A DNA stretch of 64,000 nucleotides, from the NCBI GenBank assembly GCA_965217585.1, contig OZ244561.1:5344001-5408000 (forward strand), in the 5' to 3' direction. The notes below the pieces were generated by a model, which did not search any database, was not told the DNA's origin, and saw nothing but the letters and a program-made list of their open reading frames with translations. The stretch is from Candidatus Latescibacterota bacterium (GTDB lineage Bacteria; Latescibacterota; UBA2968; UBA8231). Positions 42,335 through 51,565 of this stretch are shown here, piece after piece. The position numbers and the translations under genes are program-made. The number at the start of each line of letters is the position of its first letter. The stretch's first letter is position 1.

Positions 42335-43597
42335 ATGGCTGTGACGCAAATCGAGCTGCCCTTTGGCGACTCCCACCTGCAAGTCACCGTGCCTAGTGAG
42401 CACCTGCTAGGCATCGTTCTGCCGAGAGCAGAACAATGCGGCGACGGCGCGGAGCACGCGTTGGTGCGGGATGCGCTGGACCGGCCCGTGGGCACGCCGG
42501 CATTGCGCGCGTTGGTGCGGCCCGGTCAGCAGGTCGCGATTGTCGTCAGCGATATGACCCGGCCCTGCCCAACGGATCGCCTGTTGTCGCCGGTGCTGGA
42601 GGAACTCGCCGCGGCCGGTGTGCCGGACGCCGACGTGACCGTGGTCGTGGCCTTGGGACTGCACCGAGCGCAGACCGCAGCCGAACTGGCCGCTTTAGTG
42701 GGGCCGGCGGTCTATGCTCGGGTGCGGGTCGTGAACCACGATCCAAAAGACGTGGTGCGGCTAGGCGTCACCGCCCGAGGTACGCCCGTGGAACTCTTCC
42801 GTCCCTTGGTAGAGGCCGATGTGCGGATCTGTTTGGGTAACTTGGAGTTTCACTACTTCGCCGGCTTTTCGGGCGGGGCCAAGGCGATCTTGCCCGGCTG
42901 TGCCTCCCCTAGCGCCATAGCGGCCAACCACGGCTTGATGGCCCGGCCCGGCGCGGAGACCGGGCGGCTCGTGGGCAATCCGGTGCGGGAAGATTTAGAA
43001 GAAGGGGCGGCCATGTTGGGGATTGACTTCATCCTCAATGTGATCGTCGACGATCGCCACCGCATTGTCGCCGCCTTTGCCGGGCACGTGCGGGAGGCCC
43101 ACCGCAAAGGGTGCGAGCGAGTGGCCGAGCGCGGGGCCGTGCCCATTGCGCGATGCGCTGATATCGTCCTCGTCAGCGCGGGCGGCTATCCGCTGGATGT
43201 CAATATGTACCAAGCGCAAAAGGCCCTCGACAACGCCGTGCATGCCGTGCGCGAAGGAGGCGTCATCGTCTGGGTGGCTGAATGCCGAGAGGGACTGGGC
43301 AGTGCTACCTTTGCCTCTTGGTTGCAGGAGGCGGATTCGGCCGACGGGATTCTCGCACGCATAGAGCGGGAATTCGTCTTGGGCGGGCACAAGGCCGCAG
43401 CCATTGCCGCGGTGCTGAAAAAGGCCCGCGTGCATTTGGTCTCATCGCTGCCGGCCGAGGCCATCGGCCGCGTCGGTTTAGTGCCCTTTGACGACCTAGA
43501 CCAAGCTGTGGCGGCCGCGCACGAGGTAGTCGGCCCCGAGGCCCGGGTCTGGGCGCTGCCCTATGGAGATTCGGTGTTGCCGCAGGCCGCAGCCTAG
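42335..43597 (+). CDS. larA: Nickel-pincer-dependent lactate racemase family protein
   Basis: SDMTRP, LGLHR, VNHD, HYFAGFSGGAKAILPG, ANH, YQAQKA, GGHKA. Confidence 0.88.
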   Translation: MAVTQIELPFGDSHLQVTVPSEHLLGIVLPRAEQCGDGAEHALVRDALDRPVGTPALRALVRPGQQVAIVVSDMTRPCPTDRLLSPVLEELAAAGVPDADVTVVVALGLHRAQTAAELAALVGPAVYARVRVVNHDPKDVVRLGVTARGTPVELFRPLVEADVRICLGNLEFHYFAGFSGGAKAILPGCASPSAIAANHGLMARPGAETGRLVGNPVREDLEEGAAMLGIDFILNVIVDDRHRIVAAFAGHVREAHRKGCERVAERGAVPIARCADIVLVSAGGYPLDVNMYQAQKALDNAVHAVREGGVIVWVAECREGLGSATFASWLQEADSADGILARIEREFVLGGHKAAAIAAVLKKARVHLVSSLPAEAIGRVGLVPFDDLDQAVAAAHEVVGPEARVWALPYGDSVLPQAAA

Positions 43598-44499
43598 GGC
43601 TTTTCACCGGCAAACAAATCGAGCTGTTCGATCTCCTCGTCGGCAAATCCCCCCAACCCTATGCCGAGCAGGCGCGTGCCCAAGTCGCCGGCCTCTGTGT
43701 CCTCTAACAGCTCGCAGGCAGCCGCGAAGATGGCTTGGGCGCGGTCGGTAAAGGCGGCTAAGCGCGATGTGCGCGTCGCGGTACGAAAATCTGGGTAGCG
43801 CACCTGTAGGCTCACGTCGCGCGCTTGCAGTCCTCTGCGCTGCAAACGCCCACAGAGCGCAGCGGCCAACTCGCGCAAGGCCTCGCGCATTTCTTCGCGG
43901 GTGTACATCGGGGTGGCAAAGGAGGTTTCCTCGCGGATTTGGCTAAGCTGCTCGGCCAGGGCGACCGAGTCGTCGTCCCGGCCTTGGGCAAGGTGCCAAA
44001 AGCTACTACCCCGCTGGCCAAAGTGGCGCACGAGTTCGTTCAGCGACACTTGAGCCAGCGAGCCGACGCGCTCTATTTGCATAGCCGCGAGTTGCTGGCG
44101 CGTAATGGCCCCCACGCCGGGGAGCTGGTCGATGGGCACGTCGGCGAGGAAATCTCCTATCTGTTCGGGCAGCACGACCGTTAGGCCATCGGGCCGCTGG
44201 CGCTCCATAGCCAGCCGCGCCAAGAACTTGCTAGGTGCCAACCCCACGGAAACGCTCCAACCTAGCTGCCGCTTGATATCGCTCTTGATCATCTTGGCGA
44301 CACGCATTCCGAAGGGGATGTCGAGCTTATTGTCGGTGACGTCGAGGATGGCGTAGCCGTCGCCCCATTCGATCCAATCGGTGTATTCGCGCAGGAGCAC
44401 GGCGAATTTGGAGCAAGCCTGGGTGTCGCGGCTAGGCGGGCCGCTATCGACTCCAATGTGAACTATCTTGCGGCGTCCGCCAGCCCTAGTGGGACTCAT
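43594..44499 (-). CDS. Catalytically inactive DinB/Pol IV-like protein lacking the fingers domain
   Basis: Palm (SVGLAPSKFLA..RPDG), thumb (LPGVG) and little finger are present with C-terminal EQLDLF; HVDMD reads HIGVD and SLDEA reads GDGYA. Confidence 0.8.
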   Translation of the reverse strand: MSPTRAGGRRKIVHIGVDSGPPSRDTQACSKFAVLLREYTDWIEWGDGYAILDVTDNKLDIPFGMRVAKMIKSDIKRQLGWSVSVGLAPSKFLARLAMERQRPDGLTVVLPEQIGDFLADVPIDQLPGVGAITRQQLAAMQIERVGSLAQVSLNELVRHFGQRGSSFWHLAQGRDDDSVALAEQLSQIREETSFATPMYTREEMREALRELAAALCGRLQRRGLQARDVSLQVRYPDFRTATRTSRLAAFTDRAQAIFAAACELLEDTEAGDLGTRLLGIGLGGFADEEIEQLDLFAGEKP

Positions 44500-45451
44500 G
44501 CGACAAAAAAGGCAGGGAAACTACGGTGGCCTGTGCTCCGTCCGCGTCTAGCGCAGTGCCCTCGGCGCAAGCGCTCCGCCGCACATAGGCGAGGGCGATC
44601 GGGCCGAGGCTTGGGGAATGGACCGCAGAAGTGATGCGCCCTACTTCGCGCACTCCATCGCGCAGCGGTTGCCCCGTTGGCGGCAGCTCGGCGGCGGAAA
44701 GCCGCAGCCCCACTAGATGCTGCTTGACTTTGTCGTAGGTGTCTAGGCGAGCGATGACTTCTTGGCCGATATAGCAGCCTTTGTCTAGATGAATGGCGCG
44801 ACCAAGCCCTGCTTCCCAGGGGTTGTAATCTTGGGTCAGTTCTCGCCCGCGCAGGGGAAGACCCTGTTCGACGCGCAGAATTTCCCAGGTCGCCGCCCCT
44901 ATTGGACGAGCACCTGCGGCGGCAAGGCGTTGCCAAAGGGCCGCTACGGCTGCGGGCGGCCCGAAGGTGCGCAGCCCCGGCCCGGCCGTCCGCGCCAGCC
45001 ACAGGCCGTCCGCGACCTGTGGGTCGAGTAGCTGGTGATCCTGAAGTTTTGCCAGATCCGCGTCCAATACGCGGGCGACTAGCTGGGTGGCGTGTGGGCC
45101 GACGAGTTCGAACATGGCCGTCTCGTCTGTGCGGTCTGCCAATTCGAGAGCCTCGGCAAAGATAAAGCGGTCCAGCCAAGCGGGGATCGCAGTGCGCGAA
45201 TCGGGACTGAGGATCAAGGCGGTGACGTCCGGGCCGCGATAGCAGGTGGCGAGGTCGAGAATCCGCGCCCGCTGTTCGATAAAAACGGCTTCGAGGCCGT
45301 GCCCTAGTTGCAGGTTATGGAAGTCGTTGGAGGTCATGCGGTGCAGGAAATCGAGATGGTCGGCACCGCGCGTGTACAAGCGAAACGAGGCTTGCGCGTC
45401 GCGTAGGGCCGCGCTGGCGCGGGCGGCGTGGTATTCGTCGTAATGGGTCAT
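44486..45451 (-). CDS. YgfZ/GcvT-family folate-binding protein
   Basis: KGCYIGQEVIAR signature of YgfZ. Confidence 0.88.
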   Translation of the reverse strand: MTHYDEYHAARASAALRDAQASFRLYTRGADHLDFLHRMTSNDFHNLQLGHGLEAVFIEQRARILDLATCYRGPDVTALILSPDSRTAIPAWLDRFIFAEALELADRTDETAMFELVGPHATQLVARVLDADLAKLQDHQLLDPQVADGLWLARTAGPGLRTFGPPAAVAALWQRLAAAGARPIGAATWEILRVEQGLPLRGRELTQDYNPWEAGLGRAIHLDKGCYIGQEVIARLDTYDKVKQHLVGLRLSAAELPPTGQPLRDGVREVGRITSAVHSPSLGPIALAYVRRSACAEGTALDADGAQATVVSLPFLSHESH

Positions 45452-45464
45452 AACGGGCAAGAGG

Positions 45465-48400
45465 CTAGGCGTGCTGCGTCACGGAGAAACGCGAGCCTAA
45501 GTCGGGGTGTTTGGCGACCTCTATTTGCACCGGGAAGGTCGCCTTGAGCTGGTCGAGATGCGTGACGATTAACACCTTTTTGAAATCCTCGCTGATTTTT
45601 TGGATGGCTTCGATGAGTTGCTCCAGCCCCTGCTCATCTTGGGTCCCGAAGCCCTCGTCGATAAAGAGGGTGTGGAGGCGGGTGCCCGAGCGCATGGCCA
45701 GCACCTTGGAAAGCGCGATGCGCAAGGCGAAATTGGTGCGGAATGCCTCGCCCCCAGAATAGAGGTGATAGGAGCGCTCGCCGACCTCGTCGGCGATTTT
45801 GACGTCGAGGGTTTCGCGGGTGCCGCCTTTTTTGAGGTCGCGCAGCGACTCAAAGGCGATTTGGATGCGGTTGTCTGTCAGGCGTGCGAGGATGGCGTTG
45901 GCCTCGTCGGCGATCTGCGGCACGGCGTTTTCAATGATCAGCGCTTGGATCCCATCCTTGCCGAATGCCTTGTCGAGCTGTTGGTAGATCCAGGCCTGTC
46001 GCTGGGTGCCTTGCAGGTCTTGGCGCAACGCGTCCCGTTCCAGCGCTAGTTCGGCGCAGCGCGAGCACAAGGCCTCTAGGTTGCCTCGGCGCTGGAGGAG
46101 TTGATCCCTTTCGACCCGCAGCTTTTCCAAGAGGGCTTGGTTTTCGCCGAGTTGCCTATCGACGTCTTCTAACTCGCCGGCCCGCTTGTCTAATCTTTCC
46201 TGTTCTTTTTTCGCGGCCTGCAATTGTTCCGCTAGAGAGGAGGCTTCGGCCTCGTAGCGCACCCGCGATTCACTGGCCGAAGCACGGCGTTCGCGGGCGT
46301 TTTGCAGGCGCTCGAATTGCCGCGCGCTGTCGCGCAGGTCGTCCTGTTGGTGGCGTAGCTGCTGGTGCTCGGCACCATTGTAACCCAAGGCTGCGAGCTG
46401 GTGCTCGACTTGGCCGAGTTGTTCCCGTTCCTCTTGGGCATAGCGGGCCTCGGCGAGTTGGCGGTCTGCTTGGTCGAGTTGGTTCTGGGCTTCGGCCCGA
46501 TCGCTGTTGAGGCGCTCGGCTTGGCTTTTGGCGTCCTGCAAGCGGGCGTGCTCGGCCTCGACCGGGCGCAACTCGGCGAGCTTTTGGCGCAGCGCCTCGT
46601 GCTCGGCGCTGCTGTAGCCCAATAGCTCTATTTCCCCGGCTAGCTTGTGCAGGCGTTCGCGTTCGCTGGGAGCGTATGATTGGTCGCTGAGTTCGCGGTC
46701 GAGGGCGGCTAGTTGCTCAGCTAGCGACTGGGCCCCAGCGGCCGATTCCCGCAATTGCCCGAGACGAGCTTCCCCGGCGGCCAGTTCTTGATGCACCTGC
46801 TGGAGGGGCGCGATTTCCTCTCCAAGGGCCCTGTAGTGCGTGCGCATCTTTTGCAACAGGTCGTCGAGAGTGGCCAGCTCGCTGCCGAGAACGGCGATGC
46901 GCTCTTGGCGGCGTTCTTCCCGTTGCGAGAGTTCTGCCGCGACCTGCTGGCGATGTTCGGCGTCGAGTGCGCTGCCGCACAATGGGCAATTGGCGTCGTC
47001 GGAACCGGCCAAGGCCTGAGCCTGCTGGCGCTCGTTGGCCAATTCTTCTTCTTCGGCGCGGAGTTTTTGCTGCCGCTCGGTGATCTGGGCATTGAGATCT
47101 CGGCCCTCGTCCTCGAGGCGGTTCCGTTCTTCGACTTTGGCCTGCAATTGGGTCCGTTGCGCTTGCAACTGGTGGATGTGAGCTGCTAGGGTTTCCCCCT
47201 CGGCGCTGGCTCGTTCTAACTGCGCCAATTGCTTGGCTAGTGCTTGGCGCTGGCTTTTGCGGCGCTCTTCTGCGAGAGATAGTTCGTGTTCGAGGCGACG
47301 GCGCTCGCGGAGGAGATCCTCGTAGCGAATCCGCGCCTGCTCTAGGGCTTGGGCCTGCTCGCTAATGGTTTTGAATTGGACGTAGCGGATGGCGATGGTC
47401 TGTTCCCGATTGAGCAAGGCTTGGTGCTCGGCGAGCTGGCGCTGTCGCTCGCCGAGGGTGGCCGCCCAGCGCTCTTGCTGTCGCTCCACTTCTTGGCGCA
47501 CCTGGGCGATTCGCTCTTCTAGCTGGCGGCGGCGGGCCTCTAACTCGCCGTGCTCCTGAGCTTTTTGTTCGATTAGGCCGATTTGAGTGCGAAGCTGGTC
47601 GTAGGTCGCAAAGTCCCGCTCGATGGATTCGGTGGCCGCTAGAATTTCGCCGTCTTGGCGCTGCTGCTCCCGCAGGTTTTCGAGTTCGGCGGAGACCTGT
47701 TGCGCCCGCTCGGCAACGCGCTGCTGCTCCCTCACTAGCTCGGAGACACGCTGGCGGATCTGCGCTAGCTCTAGGCGCTGGGCCTCCAACTCGGCTTGCT
47801 CTTTTTCACGGCTGCTGATTTCGCGGCCGAGTAGAGCGAGGTGATCATCGACGGCGCGCAGCTCGGCTTCGTAGCCTTCTCGCCTAGCCAATTCGGTATC
47901 GAGTTCACCGAGGCGAGTTTGCTGAGCCTCGCTCTGGCGCTGGTGCTCTTGATAGCGGACCCGGGCCATGCCTTGGAGCTGGTCGTAGCGCCCCAAGCCG
48001 AGGATGCGACCGAGTACCTCCTTGCGCTGCCTGGCGTTTTTCTGGGTGAACTCGTCGGCGCGCCCTTGGACGATGAAGGCCGAGTTGACGAAGGTGTCGT
48101 AGTCCATGGATAGGAGCTCGTTGATGCGCCGCTGGGTGGGATTAATGCCCTCGCCTTCGCTGAGAGTGCGGAAGACGCCGTCGCTTTCTACTTGCAGGTC
48201 TAGGGCCGGGACGCCTCGCTTGGTGCGGCGCCAATTGCGGATGACGCGGAAGTGCTTTTCGCCGAGGGCGAAGTCGAAGTCGACCCGCATCTCTCTGGCT
48301 CCGATCCGACACAGTTCTTCGTCGCTGCGGCTTTTGCGAGCTTGGCCCCACAGGGCGTAGGTAATCCCGTCGAGCAGGGCGGATTTGCCGTGGCCGTTGC

Positions 48401-48500
48401 CGCCTGTGAGGCAGGCGACGTGGAACTGGGTAAAGTCGAGTGGTGGCACCTCCTCGCCGTAGCTGAGAAAGTTGCGCAGCGAAAGGGAGAGAGGGATCAT
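45465..48500 (-). CDS. sbcC: SbcC/Rad50 SMC-like ATPase
   Basis: Walker A GGNGHGKS, coiled coil with CPLC zinc hook, YSGGE, LFIDEGFGTQD. Confidence 0.92.
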   Translation of the reverse strand: MIPLSLSLRNFLSYGEEVPPLDFTQFHVACLTGGNGHGKSALLDGITYALWGQARKSRSDEELCRIGAREMRVDFDFALGEKHFRVIRNWRRTKRGVPALDLQVESDGVFRTLSEGEGINPTQRRINELLSMDYDTFVNSAFIVQGRADEFTQKNARQRKEVLGRILGLGRYDQLQGMARVRYQEHQRQSEAQQTRLGELDTELARREGYEAELRAVDDHLALLGREISSREKEQAELEAQRLELAQIRQRVSELVREQQRVAERAQQVSAELENLREQQRQDGEILAATESIERDFATYDQLRTQIGLIEQKAQEHGELEARRRQLEERIAQVRQEVERQQERWAATLGERQRQLAEHQALLNREQTIAIRYVQFKTISEQAQALEQARIRYEDLLRERRRLEHELSLAEERRKSQRQALAKQLAQLERASAEGETLAAHIHQLQAQRTQLQAKVEERNRLEDEGRDLNAQITERQQKLRAEEEELANERQQAQALAGSDDANCPLCGSALDAEHRQQVAAELSQREERRQERIAVLGSELATLDDLLQKMRTHYRALGEEIAPLQQVHQELAAGEARLGQLRESAAGAQSLAEQLAALDRELSDQSYAPSERERLHKLAGEIELLGYSSAEHEALRQKLAELRPVEAEHARLQDAKSQAERLNSDRAEAQNQLDQADRQLAEARYAQEEREQLGQVEHQLAALGYNGAEHQQLRHQQDDLRDSARQFERLQNARERRASASESRVRYEAEASSLAEQLQAAKKEQERLDKRAGELEDVDRQLGENQALLEKLRVERDQLLQRRGNLEALCSRCAELALERDALRQDLQGTQRQAWIYQQLDKAFGKDGIQALIIENAVPQIADEANAILARLTDNRIQIAFESLRDLKKGGTRETLDVKIADEVGERSYHLYSGGEAFRTNFALRIALSKVLAMRSGTRLHTLFIDEGFGTQDEQGLEQLIEAIQKISEDFKKVLIVTHLDQLKATFPVQIEVAKHPDLGSRFSVTQHA

Positions 48501-49765
48501 CCGTCGTCTTCGTCGCGTTGGCCAGATTCGAGCTCGCGCTCGAGGTGGAGCGCGTAGTTTTTGAGCTCGGACCGGTGCGTTTGCAGGTCTGGGCTGTTGT
48601 CGATATAGCGGTCGAGGGCGTCGCCTAAGCCGGCCTCCTCGCTGATTTCAGCACGGCGTTGACGCACTTCCGGGGCGAAGCGCGGCTGGATAAAGGCGAC
48701 GTGGAAGGCCGGTTCAAGTGCCTGCCGCACCTGTTGTAAGTCCACCGGCGTGGCGTAGCCTGCGGGCAGGTCGTAGAGGACGCGGACTACGGCGTCTGCC
48801 AGATCGGCCTCGGCGCAGGCCGCGACGAGGCGCTCGGTGGCGTCTTGGCCGTCGAGCACCTTCAGCTTGATGGTCGCAAAGCGCCGGGACGGGACGGGGA
48901 CGAACTCAAAAGTAGTCGCCTGGCCCCTCGGCGCAGTTGCGTCCTCTGCGATACGTACGAGGCAGAAGCCCTTGTCTTCGCCTTCCTCGCCAAAGTCGAT
49001 GCGCTCTAGGCTGCCCGAATAAATCACGGGCGGATGTTGGCCGGGGTTGAGGTCTTGATATTTGTGAATGTGCCCCAAGGCGACATAGTCGTAGGCGGGA
49101 TTGGCAAGGGTGCTGGTGAGCAAAACGGGGTCTTGGCCGATAATAGCGGTGCGTTCGCCCCCAGAATAGACGGCGTCGGCGGCAGCGAGGTGGGCGATGA
49201 GTACGCCCGGCAGCTCGGGGTCGAGCTGCCGGGCGTACTCATCGATCTGGGCTGCGCAGATCTTTTGAATCTCGACGCGGACTTCCTCTAGGGACAGGTC
49301 GCGGTATTCATCGCGGGTGAGTAGGGCATGGCGCGTTGGCCAGGGTAGGCCGGCCACTTGTACCGGGCCATTGGCCGTTTCGATCCGCAGAAGCTCCGGG
49401 CGGCGGATGACATGGGTGCCCTCTAGCTGTAGGGTGCTGAAAATATCGACCGAAGTAGCTTTGCCGAAAGCGCCCGGTGCGTCGTGGTTGCCGACCACCA
49501 GCACGATGGGGATGCGGGCCGCTTGCAGGCGCTGGAGCTGGCGGGCAAAGACGCGCTGGTGGGTCGGGGTCGGATCGCAATTTTTGTACATGTCGCCGGC
49601 GAAGAGGACCAAATCGACCGCCTTTTCAATGGCTAGGTCGAAGACTGCTTCTAGGCTGGCGGCAAAATCTCGAACCCGCGAATGCAGGCCAGAGCTTGGG
49701 TCGAGGCTGCCGTGGTTTTCGATGCCCAAATGCAGATCGGCAAAGTGCAGGAGTGTCAAGGCCAT
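48497..49765 (-). CDS. sbcD: SbcD/Mre11 nuclease
   Basis: HFADLHLG, FAGDMY, VGNHD, ALGHIH, YSGSLERIDFGE. Confidence 0.92.
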   Translation of the reverse strand: MALTLLHFADLHLGIENHGSLDPSSGLHSRVRDFAASLEAVFDLAIEKAVDLVLFAGDMYKNCDPTPTHQRVFARQLQRLQAARIPIVLVVGNHDAPGAFGKATSVDIFSTLQLEGTHVIRRPELLRIETANGPVQVAGLPWPTRHALLTRDEYRDLSLEEVRVEIQKICAAQIDEYARQLDPELPGVLIAHLAAADAVYSGGERTAIIGQDPVLLTSTLANPAYDYVALGHIHKYQDLNPGQHPPVIYSGSLERIDFGEEGEDKGFCLVRIAEDATAPRGQATTFEFVPVPSRRFATIKLKVLDGQDATERLVAACAEADLADAVVRVLYDLPAGYATPVDLQQVRQALEPAFHVAFIQPRFAPEVRQRRAEISEEAGLGDALDRYIDNSPDLQTHRSELKNYALHLERELESGQRDEDDG

Positions 49766-49886: not shown

Positions 49887-49888
49887 AA

Positions 49889-51000
49889 CTGACGTTACGC
49901 ACCTGTATTTATCTTGGTATATTCCCCGTATGGACAAACACCTTTTAGAATTATATAGCGATTATCTGCTCAGTTCGTTTGGCGCGACGACGGCGACCGG
50001 CTTATCGGCACTGGTGGACGGGGCCTTAAGCCATGATCAAGTCACGCGCTTTCTGTCGGGTGCCGACTATGATGGCCGCACGCTGTGGCAGCAGATCAAG
50101 CCGATGGTACGCGAGATCGAGCAGGACGATGGGGTGCTGATCGTCCCCCCGCGTACGCGGGGGCAAGAAAAGCCGCATACGGATGAAAATGACCTGATCT
50201 GTTGGCATTATGATCACAGCCAAAACCGTTCGGTCAAGGGCCTCAACCTGCTCAACTGTGTGTATCATGCCAGCGGGGTGAGTCTGCCGGTGACGTATGA
50301 GTTGATCCGTAAACCCATTCTCTTTAGCGATGTGCAGACTCGTCAGGTCAAGCGCCGGAGTCTGCACACGAAAAATGAGTTGATGCGCCAGATGTTGCGC
50401 ACCTGGCAACATAATCAGCTCCCCTATCGCTACGTGCTGGCCGATAGCTGGTTTTCGGCCAAAGACAACTTAACCTTCATCCGCAAGACCCTCCACAAAC
50501 ACTTCGTCGTCGCCCTTAAATCCAATAGGACGGTCGCCTTGAGCTATGAACAGAAACGTCAAGGAGCCTTCGCACGCATCGACGCACAACCGTTGCCTGA
50601 ACATCAGCCGGTACTCGGCTGGATCAAAGGATTAGACTTTCCCGTCCTGTTGCTCCGGCAGGTCTTTACAAACCAGGATGGCAGCACCGGCACCTTGTAT
50701 CTGGCGTGTAGTGATCAAACGTGTGATGGAGCCACCATCGAAACAATCTACCAGAAACGGTGGAACGTGGAGACGTTTCATAAAACGCTCAAGTCGCATG
50801 CTGCCTTAGCCAAGTCGCCGACCAAGCGGGTACGCACCCAAAGCAACCACTGTTTTATGGCCCTGTATGCGGCCGGTCGCTTGGAGGGCCTGCGGATCAA
50901 GCACCGACTCAATCACTTCGCGCTGCGATCCCGACTCTATCTCAAGGCCATTCGATATGCCTTCGATGAACTACAAACGCTCAAAACTGCGTAACGTCAG
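49889..51000 (+). mobile_element. IS701-like insertion sequence, 1112 bp, 13-bp TIRs, 8-bp TSD
   Basis: TIRs CTGACGTTACGCA / TGCGTAACGTCAG; TACATTAA duplicated at 49881-49888 and 51001-51008. Confidence 0.9.
49930..50994 (+). CDS. DDE transposase (IS701-like), probably inactivated
   Basis: SHDQVTRFL, YVLADSWF, YQKRWNVETFHKTLK; the expected LIVDDT motif reads LIVPPRTRG; the stop codon lies in the right TIR. Confidence 0.85.
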   Translation: MDKHLLELYSDYLLSSFGATTATGLSALVDGALSHDQVTRFLSGADYDGRTLWQQIKPMVREIEQDDGVLIVPPRTRGQEKPHTDENDLICWHYDHSQNRSVKGLNLLNCVYHASGVSLPVTYELIRKPILFSDVQTRQVKRRSLHTKNELMRQMLRTWQHNQLPYRYVLADSWFSAKDNLTFIRKTLHKHFVVALKSNRTVALSYEQKRQGAFARIDAQPLPEHQPVLGWIKGLDFPVLLLRQVFTNQDGSTGTLYLACSDQTCDGATIETIYQKRWNVETFHKTLKSHAALAKSPTKRVRTQSNHCFMALYAAGRLEGLRIKHRLNHFALRSRLYLKAIRYAFDELQTLKTA

Positions 51001-51019
51001 TACATTAATTTACTTGAGT

Positions 51020-51051
51020 AGCGGAAGCGGTCAGCGCGCTTCCGCTTTTTG
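51020..51051 (+). terminator. Intrinsic terminator in the greA leader
   Basis: AGCGGAAGCG-loop-CGCTTCCGCT followed by TTTTG. Confidence 0.8.
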
Positions 51052-51094
51052 TGTTAAGTAGCACATGTTGTTCTCTCCTGCTTGAGGCTTGGTA

Positions 51095-51565
51095 ATGAGT
51101 GAAGTATATCTTTCGCGAGAAGGCTACGAAAAACTTCAGGTCGAGTTGAAAGGACTCAAGGAGACCGAACGCCCGGCAGTGCGCCAAGCGCTGCAGCGAG
51201 CGCGGGAGTTTGGCGACCTGTCCGAGAACGCCGAGTATTCAGCAGCTAAAGAAAGGTTGCTCTTCCTAGAGCAGCGCATCGGCAAGCTCGAAGAGACACT
51301 CAGCCGGGCCCGCCTGCTAGAAAACGAGGCGATCCCAGAAGACAAGGTCTATATCGGTGCCACCGTAGAGCTAGAGGACCTCGCGAAGGCGCGGCAGCTC
51401 ACGTACACACTAGTCGCACCCGAGGAAGCGGATTTTGAGGCGGGGAAAATTTCCACGGTTTCGCCGATAGGCAGGGGGTTACTAGGGCACGAAGAAGGAG
51501 AAGAAATCGAGATTGAAGTGCCCGTTGGCAAGCTGCACTACAGGATTGTCAAGATCACGCGCTGA
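51095..51565 (+). CDS. greA: Transcription elongation factor GreA
   Basis: AREFGDLSENAEYSAAKE, ISTVSPIGRGLLG. Confidence 0.96.
   Translation: MSEVYLSREGYEKLQVELKGLKETERPAVRQALQRAREFGDLSENAEYSAAKERLLFLEQRIGKLEETLSRARLLENEAIPEDKVYIGATVELEDLAKARQLTYTLVAPEEADFEAGKISTVSPIGRGLLGHEEGEEIEIEVPVGKLHYRIVKITR

Follow-up and report, generated by a model that had tools for sequence, protein, structure and literature searches.

A DinB orthologue without a fingers domain

The window analysed here is a 64,000-nt stretch of contig OZ244561.1 (positions 5,344,001 to 5,408,000, forward strand) from a Candidatus Latescibacterota bacterium, the metagenome-assembled genome (MAG) of which is a 7.32-Mb single contig with a completeness of 94.6%. 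The window contains four head-to-tail minus-strand open reading frames (ORFs) in the order sbcD, sbcC, ygfZ-like and dinB, and the last of these encodes an orthologue of the Y-family polymerase DinB (Pol IV) that has no fingers domain and a degraded active site. We refer to this gene and its product as the fingerless dinB and the fingerless DinB; their coordinates are as follows.

43594-44499, minus strand: fingerless dinB, active-site-degraded DinB/Pol IV orthologue, 301 aa (ORF; partial Pfam and NCBIfam matches; AlphaFold2 model)
44446-44472, minus strand: RKIVHIGVD, retained N-terminal palm strand with Gly at the first catalytic Asp position (sequence, alignments)
44407-44445, minus strand: linker SGPPSRDTQACSK, 13 aa, in place of the fingers domain (sequence)
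44350-44364, minus strand: GDGYA, what remains, in degenerate form, of the catalytic motif S-[LI]-D-E-A (sequence, alignments)
44110-44124, minus strand: LPGVG, helix-hairpin-helix (HhH) motif of the thumb (sequence; PF21999, 38.4 bits)
43612-43629, minus strand: EQLDLF, predicted C-terminal beta-clamp-binding motif, residues 291-296 (sequence)

Catalysis by Y-family polymerases needs the fingers domain and three carboxylates, which in E. coli Pol IV we take to be D8, D103 and E104. The Pfam IMS model (PF00817) was matched by the fingerless DinB over positions 76-148 of 148 only, and the thumb (PF21999, IMS_HHH_1, 38.4 bits) and little finger (PF11799, IMS_C, 91.1 bits) were both found above their cut-offs. 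The NCBIfam Pol IV models matched from about profile position 91, all of them below their cut-offs, the best being NF002677 with 177.1 bits versus a cut-off of 256. When the PDB was searched with phmmer, residues 32-282 aligned with residues 87-337 of E. coli Pol IV, which placed a Gly-Tyr pair opposite D103-E104. The closest full-length relatives, of 364-368 aa and 45-52% identical, have an intact HVDMDAFYA motif, fingers and an intact ALDEAYLDVT motif, and share lineage-specific motifs and the EQLDLF tail with the fingerless DinB. Where these relatives read HVDMDAFYA, fingers and ALDEAYLDVT, the fingerless DinB reads HIGVD, linker and GDGYAILDVT, and its net loss relative to full-length DinB is about 64-67 aa. 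The three aligned catalytic positions are occupied by Gly, Gly and Tyr, the invariant palm Lys of the APxK motif is kept, and the protein ends 5 residues past the clamp motif with no C-terminal extension. Motifs of the QL[SD]LF type bind the beta clamp.

An earlier note on this DNA, made from its letters, had described an in-frame replacement of the fingers by a linker and the retention of the palm remnant, thumb, little finger and EQLDLF; the sequence, the Pfam coverage and the alignments with full-length relatives agree with the former, and the strings that it quoted are all present at the coordinates listed above. Its claim that the catalytic acids are lost stands for the first Asp of HVDMD, which has become Gly, and for the D-E pair, which has become G-Y, but not for the second Asp of HVDMD, which is retained.

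An AlphaFold2 model of the protein had a mean pLDDT (predicted local distance difference test score) of 90.4, with the strand of residues 12-17 joining the palm. Superposition of this model on E. coli Pol IV (PDB 4ir1, 6jup) gave a Z score of 22.7 over 277 aligned residues (model 8-289 versus chain 0-341) and left about 65 Pol IV residues without a counterpart. The fingerless DinB is thus predicted to fold as a palm remnant followed by an HhH thumb and a little finger, with the clamp peptide EQLDLF at its end.

The fingerless form occurs throughout the genus and appears to have a single origin

We compared this locus across a genus set of 31 genomes, including this one, the relatives being public MAGs labelled Candidatus Latescibacterota. 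A fingerless form was found at the same locus in 31/31 genomes without internal stops, so that the earlier description of a frame with no stop or frameshift, and the orthologues with the same deletion that it had proposed to look for, extend to the whole genus. In all 31, alignment to P0082, a full-length relative, starts only at positions 87-98 of the latter, the open frames measuring 306-387 aa, and in every one of them PF00817 is matched at this locus only from positions 66-80 to 147-148. Identity to the fingerless DinB of the window is 52-90% within the genus. Two alignments flagged as containing one TAG reflect natural stop codons that were read through, and the upstream open frames seen in some species are out-of-frame read-through of ygfZ that encodes no fingers. 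The deletion is hence not specific to one strain, which the earlier note had named among the outcomes that would speak against its proposal. In the sister genera of this family, the orthologues are full-length DinBs with intact motifs. About 80 further clusters of the fingerless form, at 51-100% identity and including some fragments, were present in a metagenome protein collection.

Conservation among the fingerless sequences is uneven. The linker ranges from about 8 to about 60 residues, with unrelated sequences, and in one relative of 353 aa (P0070) it is a Pro/Thr/Gln-rich low-complexity segment of about 60 residues. G16 and D18, as well as P127, G128 and G130 of the thumb, are invariant in 20 fingerless sequences, as is EQLDLF, for which two exceptions (EQLYLF and EQLNLF) were seen elsewhere. 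There are also conserved positions that are specific to the fingerless clade and absent in the sisters. The first catalytic position is Gly in all fingerless sequences examined. Deep-branching members of the genus (L016-L019) keep the Asp of the D-E pair, one of them as D-D, and in the crown group the pair reads G-Y or D-Y. Because Gly is found in all and the Asp of the D-E pair is still kept in deep branches, the fingers and the first Asp would have been lost on the stem of the genus, with the rest of the active site decaying later.

A quick maximum-likelihood tree, built from 47 sequences, groups all 24 fingerless ones in a single clade (SH-aLRT, the Shimodaira-Hasegawa-like approximate likelihood ratio test, 100) that sits on a long stem (0.6) and is nested among the full-length orthologues of sister genera. 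As the fingerless sequences form a single nested clade, the fingers appear to have been deleted once, on the genus stem. This nesting and the shared ygfZ-dinB-larA locus identify the protein as a DinB orthologue.

A profile built from 20 fingerless sequences was also searched against 1.84 billion representatives, and among the best 150 matches one (P0121) was fingerless. Ten short hits (P0174, P0181, P0199, P0218, P0246, P0260, P0152, P0157, P0251 and P0209) were considered as fingerless and rejected, as they start in or just after the fingers and keep D-E; P0103, P0120 and P0074, considered as further fingerless lineages, were rejected as likewise N-terminally cut calls or fragments that keep D-E. 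The inspected short hits are therefore N-terminally cut gene calls or fragments.

Constraint on the fingerless dinB appears to be retained and structured by domain

The ratio of nonsynonymous to synonymous substitution rates (dN/dS) was estimated within the genus by the Nei-Gojobori method (NG86) for pairs with 0.05 < dS < 1.5. This gave a median of 0.226 for the fingerless dinB (159/210 pairs) and, with the same filter, medians of 0.184 for ygfZ, 0.208 for sbcC, 0.139 for sbcD and 0.112 for larA. Ten phylogenetically independent pairs gave a median of 0.24 for the fingerless dinB (range 0.12-0.32), similar to ygfZ. Within the gene, the clamp motif is the most constrained region (0.09, from 9 codons) and the palm remnant the second most constrained (0.17), followed by the thumb and the little finger (0.24 each), the N-terminus (0.46) and the linker (0.79). 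The region shared with full-length orthologues has a dN/dS of 0.12-0.26 within the sister genera. A dN/dS comparison had been among the checks suggested earlier, and the value of about 0.23, which is not near 1, indicates a gene that is selected rather than decaying. Taken together, these values suggest that constraint on the fingerless dinB is relaxed, far from lost and structured by domain, consistent with purifying selection.

The fingerless DinB is the only Y-family protein found in most genomes of the genus

In the genome of the window, PF00817 is matched once, at the fingerless dinB, and accordingly no separate fingers or N-terminal piece of a split gene was found with this model. DNA_pol3_alpha (PF07733) also has one match, a dnaE frame of 1159 aa; DnaE2 was not found, this being the single PF07733 match, and no match to PolB was obtained in this 94.6% complete MAG. 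One DnaN, near position 2640300 of contig C1 of this genome, and LexA are present. No complete Y-family domain was found in 29/31 genomes of the genus, where the fingerless DinB is the sole Y-family protein. The other two genomes, G016 and G023, which are among the five members of the genus most divergent from the window, each carry an extra full-length PolY; that of G016 (L121 7458-8936) is UmuC-like (NF002955, 365 bits, under the cut-off of 431), and the second lies at G023:C15. From these gene contents, the lineage seems to do without recognisable specialised translesion polymerases.

The gene order around dinB predates the deletion

The genes that adjoin the fingerless dinB are as follows.

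44486-45460, minus strand: ygfZ-like gene, folate-binding protein of GcvT fold, 324 aa (PF01571, 117.9 bits; PF08669; TIGR03317, 89.1 bits, cut-off 49)
45465-48500, minus strand: sbcC, Rad50-like ATPase with zinc hook, 1011 aa (AAA_23, SbcC_Walker_B and Rad50_zn_hook above cut-offs)
48497-49765, minus strand: sbcD, Mre11-like nuclease, 422 aa, first gene of the cluster (TIGR00619, 163 bits, cut-off 77.65; Metallophos)
42335-43597, plus strand: larA-family (malate racemase-like) gene, convergent with the cluster (NF052593, 503.5 bits, cut-off 500)

The pair formed by SbcD, an Mre11-type phosphoesterase, and SbcC, a Rad50-type ATPase with a zinc hook, has the make-up of an SbcCD nuclease; TIGR00618 matches SbcC with 304 bits, below its cut-off of 478.5. 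The product of the ygfZ-like gene combines a GcvT fold with the YgfZ signature domain, as expected of the YgfZ/CAF17 family. Since this gene is the sole YgfZ match in the genome, it may be a plain housekeeping neighbour of dinB, and a complex prediction of the fingerless DinB with its YgfZ-like neighbour gave no support for a pairing, which weighs neither way. The ORF coordinates confirm the tight packing reported earlier, with overlaps of 4 nt between sbcD and sbcC and of 14 nt between ygfZ and dinB, and sbcC and ygfZ are separated by 4 nt. The larA-family gene is a conserved neighbour across the genus and at most sister-genus loci. Its 3' end overlaps that of the fingerless dinB by 4 nt (43594-43597), leaving no space for a terminator between the two.

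The order sbcC-ygfZ-dinB-(larA), with fingerless dinB, was found in 21/21 genus loci examined, with sbcD wherever the flank reaches. In sister genera, 13/14 loci have ygfZ immediately upstream of a full-length dinB, the exception being L034, which has a 37%-identical DinB. At 3/14 sister loci (L028, L033 and L035) the gene immediately upstream of ygfZ is sbcC or sbcD, and at L032 sbcC is 5.9 kb away. No sbcCD was seen in the fetched flank of seven sister loci (L024-L027, L029, L030 and L037) or within the 2.6 kb available at L031; its presence at L036 could not be judged. As the same order surrounds full-length dinB in sister genera, the sbcD-sbcC-ygfZ-dinB arrangement predates the deletion and is not tied to the fingerless form. 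The earlier proposal that the fingerless form and SbcCD are coupled as a new module is therefore not upheld, and nothing beyond this inherited gene order speaks for a specific link to SbcCD.

Relation to known active and inactive Y-family proteins

The fingerless DinB resembles E. coli DinB/Pol IV (PDB 4ir1, 6jup) in its palm core, HhH thumb, little finger, QLDLF-type tail and orthology, but differs from it in having no fingers, a Gly for the first Asp, G-Y for D-E, and scores under all NCBIfam Pol IV cut-offs.

ImuB is described as catalytically dead while keeping a clamp-binding motif, and is thought to be an adaptor (PMC6511836, PMC11791113); it belongs to a distinct, distant subfamily, is extended at its C-terminus and functions together with DnaE2 (PMC6511836). 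Like ImuB, the fingerless DinB is a dead Y-family protein with a clamp motif, although the resemblance is one of working principle only: the fingerless DinB has neither the C-terminal extension (ImuB-C/RecA-NT) nor DnaE2, it nests in DinB, and its fingers are physically deleted. Its neighbours are sbcDC, ygfZ and larA, not imuA and dnaE2. The independence from ImuB that had been claimed earlier is borne out by this nesting, by the missing extension and by the presence of only one dnaE.

There are also other inactive PolYs (iPolYs; scDinB2-like, Kyrpidia-type), which the main text of two studies places near the PolY-core/DinB group, in an operon or system context that includes DnaE2 and/or ImuB-C and RecA-NT motifs (PMC6511836, PMC12926913). 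Judged by these main-text descriptions, the fingerless DinB is set apart by the absence of DnaE2, ImuB-C and RecA-NT. The passages on iPolYs in PMC6511836 and PMC12926913 make no mention of a loss of the fingers domain, while their supplements may list similar proteins; truncated sequences were, according to the passage concerned, discarded ahead of the phylogeny in PMC12926913. Our literature search returned no paper in which a fingerless Y-family polymerase or an sbcCD-dinB operon is described. On its sequence features, the fingerless DinB is best called a variant of the inactive-PolY kind that would have been derived from DinB by domain excision.

A probable non-catalytic, clamp-tethered role

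We consider it probable (about 0.6) that the fingerless DinB is a selected, non-catalytic remnant of Pol IV that acts as a clamp-tethered DNA-binding factor. One ancestral in-frame deletion would have removed the fingers, the first catalytic Asp being lost along with it; the remaining carboxylates would then have drifted in sublineages, while the protein was kept by purifying selection. From what is established for Y-family polymerases, such a protein should be unable to bind an incoming dNTP or to catalyse synthesis, could use its C-terminal EQLDLF to dock on the beta sliding clamp, and could grip duplex DNA with its thumb and little finger. These three properties together would make it a non-synthesising, clamp-tethered DNA-binding factor, which might for example occupy clamps or primer ends as a brake or placeholder, or serve as a platform for partners. 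The selected non-catalytic adaptor envisaged in the earlier note is supported to this extent by the genus-wide retention, the dN/dS of about 0.23 and the clamp motif being the most constrained region.

Several observations weigh against this reading. Relative to its neighbours, the fingerless dinB evolves about twice as fast as full-length dinB does in sister genera, with a dN ratio to larA of 1.88 versus 1.02 and to ygfZ of 1.21 versus 0.56, suggesting that some constraint has been lost. Some basic little-finger positions that are conserved in the sisters vary in the genus (e.g. the Lys of TLKVRY), and DNA binding by the fingerless DinB may be altered. In addition, the dN/dS values of the 210 pairs are not mutually independent, the estimate for the clamp motif comes from few codons, the tree is the product of a quick search only, and the genomes are MAGs, in which "no other polymerase" means that none was found.

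The raised rate, the loss of catalysis and the near-neutral linker are what would be expected if the fingerless DinB were a functionless relic that happens to be still undisrupted. Because constraint is retained and structured by domain, we regard this as highly improbable: all 31 ORFs are intact although divergence of the protein within the genus reaches 48%, and the ten independent pairs give values like those of the neighbouring ygfZ. That the protein is still a polymerase, with a fingers function supplied in trans as in a split enzyme or with an unusual mechanism, is barely credible; the deep branches L016-L019 do keep one or two of the D-E carboxylates and the palm Lys of APxK is retained, but PF00817 has a single match in the genome and no detached N-terminal or fingers segment was seen, every sequence examined has Gly for the first catalytic Asp, and D-E has given way to G-Y or D-Y in the crown group.

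Two alternatives accept a non-catalytic role and differ in the partner. In one, the dead DinB acts as an adaptor between the beta clamp and the SbcCD encoded with it, tethering the nuclease in a dedicated repair module, for which the close spacing of the four genes, the position of sbcC directly upstream of ygfZ-dinB in all 21 genus loci and the conserved clamp motif can be cited. We think this very unlikely, as the same order surrounds a full-length, active-looking DinB at L028, L033 and L035, seven other sister loci have ygfZ-dinB with no sbcCD in the fetched flank, so that the linkage predates the deletion and can be lost, and neither an interaction surface nor an additional domain was identified in a protein that stops 5 residues after its clamp motif. 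In the other, the role would bypass the clamp and consist, for example, in DNA binding, in regulation or in partnership with another protein such as RecA or the YgfZ-like protein. The family-wide adjacency of ygfZ and dinB (13/14 sister and 21/21 genus loci) fits this, as does the palm remnant, whose rank as second most constrained region is not accounted for by clamp docking alone; against it stand the clamp motif, as the most constrained element, and the possible housekeeping nature of the genome's only ygfZ. On balance we find a clamp-independent role unlikely.

If the fingerless DinB is a selected clamp-tethered factor, its interest lies in what it separates. The inactive homologues in the Y family have become known chiefly as ImuB-type subunits of the DnaE2 mutasome; the present protein is a true DinB orthologue that stays under selection although an entire domain and the active site are gone. 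It would represent a natural separation-of-function allele, such that whatever sustains it is a non-catalytic job of Pol IV, with clamp occupancy, DNA binding and partner recruitment as candidates; in model organisms, with their intertwined catalysis and scaffolding, such a job is difficult to study by itself. A wider conjecture, which we rate as distinctly unlikely, is that a non-catalytic Y-family clamp adaptor arose a second time, independently of ImuB, when the fingers were cleanly excised from an active Pol IV in bacteria that have otherwise abandoned Y-family, DnaE2 and PolB translesion synthesis; this adaptor would work at clamp-bearing DNA ends together with SbcCD or another partner.

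Transcription and the upstream region

Contigs from RNA libraries labelled sponge metagenome (X8 and X9) contain pieces identical to the fingerless dinB at 43847-44003, 43979-44158 and 44178-44383, and a 2672-nt RNA-library contig of a relative (X19, about 93% identical) spans 43300-44809. These give a weak hint that the gene is transcribed, as they are contigs only, carry-over of DNA is possible, and the long one crosses convergent genes. In a comparison made by eye only, no shared operator was seen upstream of lexA and sbcD.

An insertion sequence (IS) element lies upstream of the cluster.

49888-51001, plus strand: IS element with DDE transposase (DDE_5, DDE_Tnp_1); perfect 14-nt inverted repeats at 49888-49901 and 50988-51001

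The element separates sbcD from greA, is 122 nt upstream of the start codon of sbcD, and is flanked by a short ACATTA-like duplication. The relatives L014 and L021-L023 have no IS element at this site, and in them the greA start is about 200 nt upstream of the sbcD start. In this strain, the insertion may affect how the sbcD-dinB cluster is transcribed. On the plus strand at about 51021-51052, a short distance before greA (51089-51565), a hairpin GCGGAAGCG-N7-CGCTTCCGC is followed by a T-run. In E. coli, greA has a leader resembling a terminator or attenuator, and the hairpin found here, which is kept in the genus and in one sister genus, likewise looks like a terminator or attenuator.

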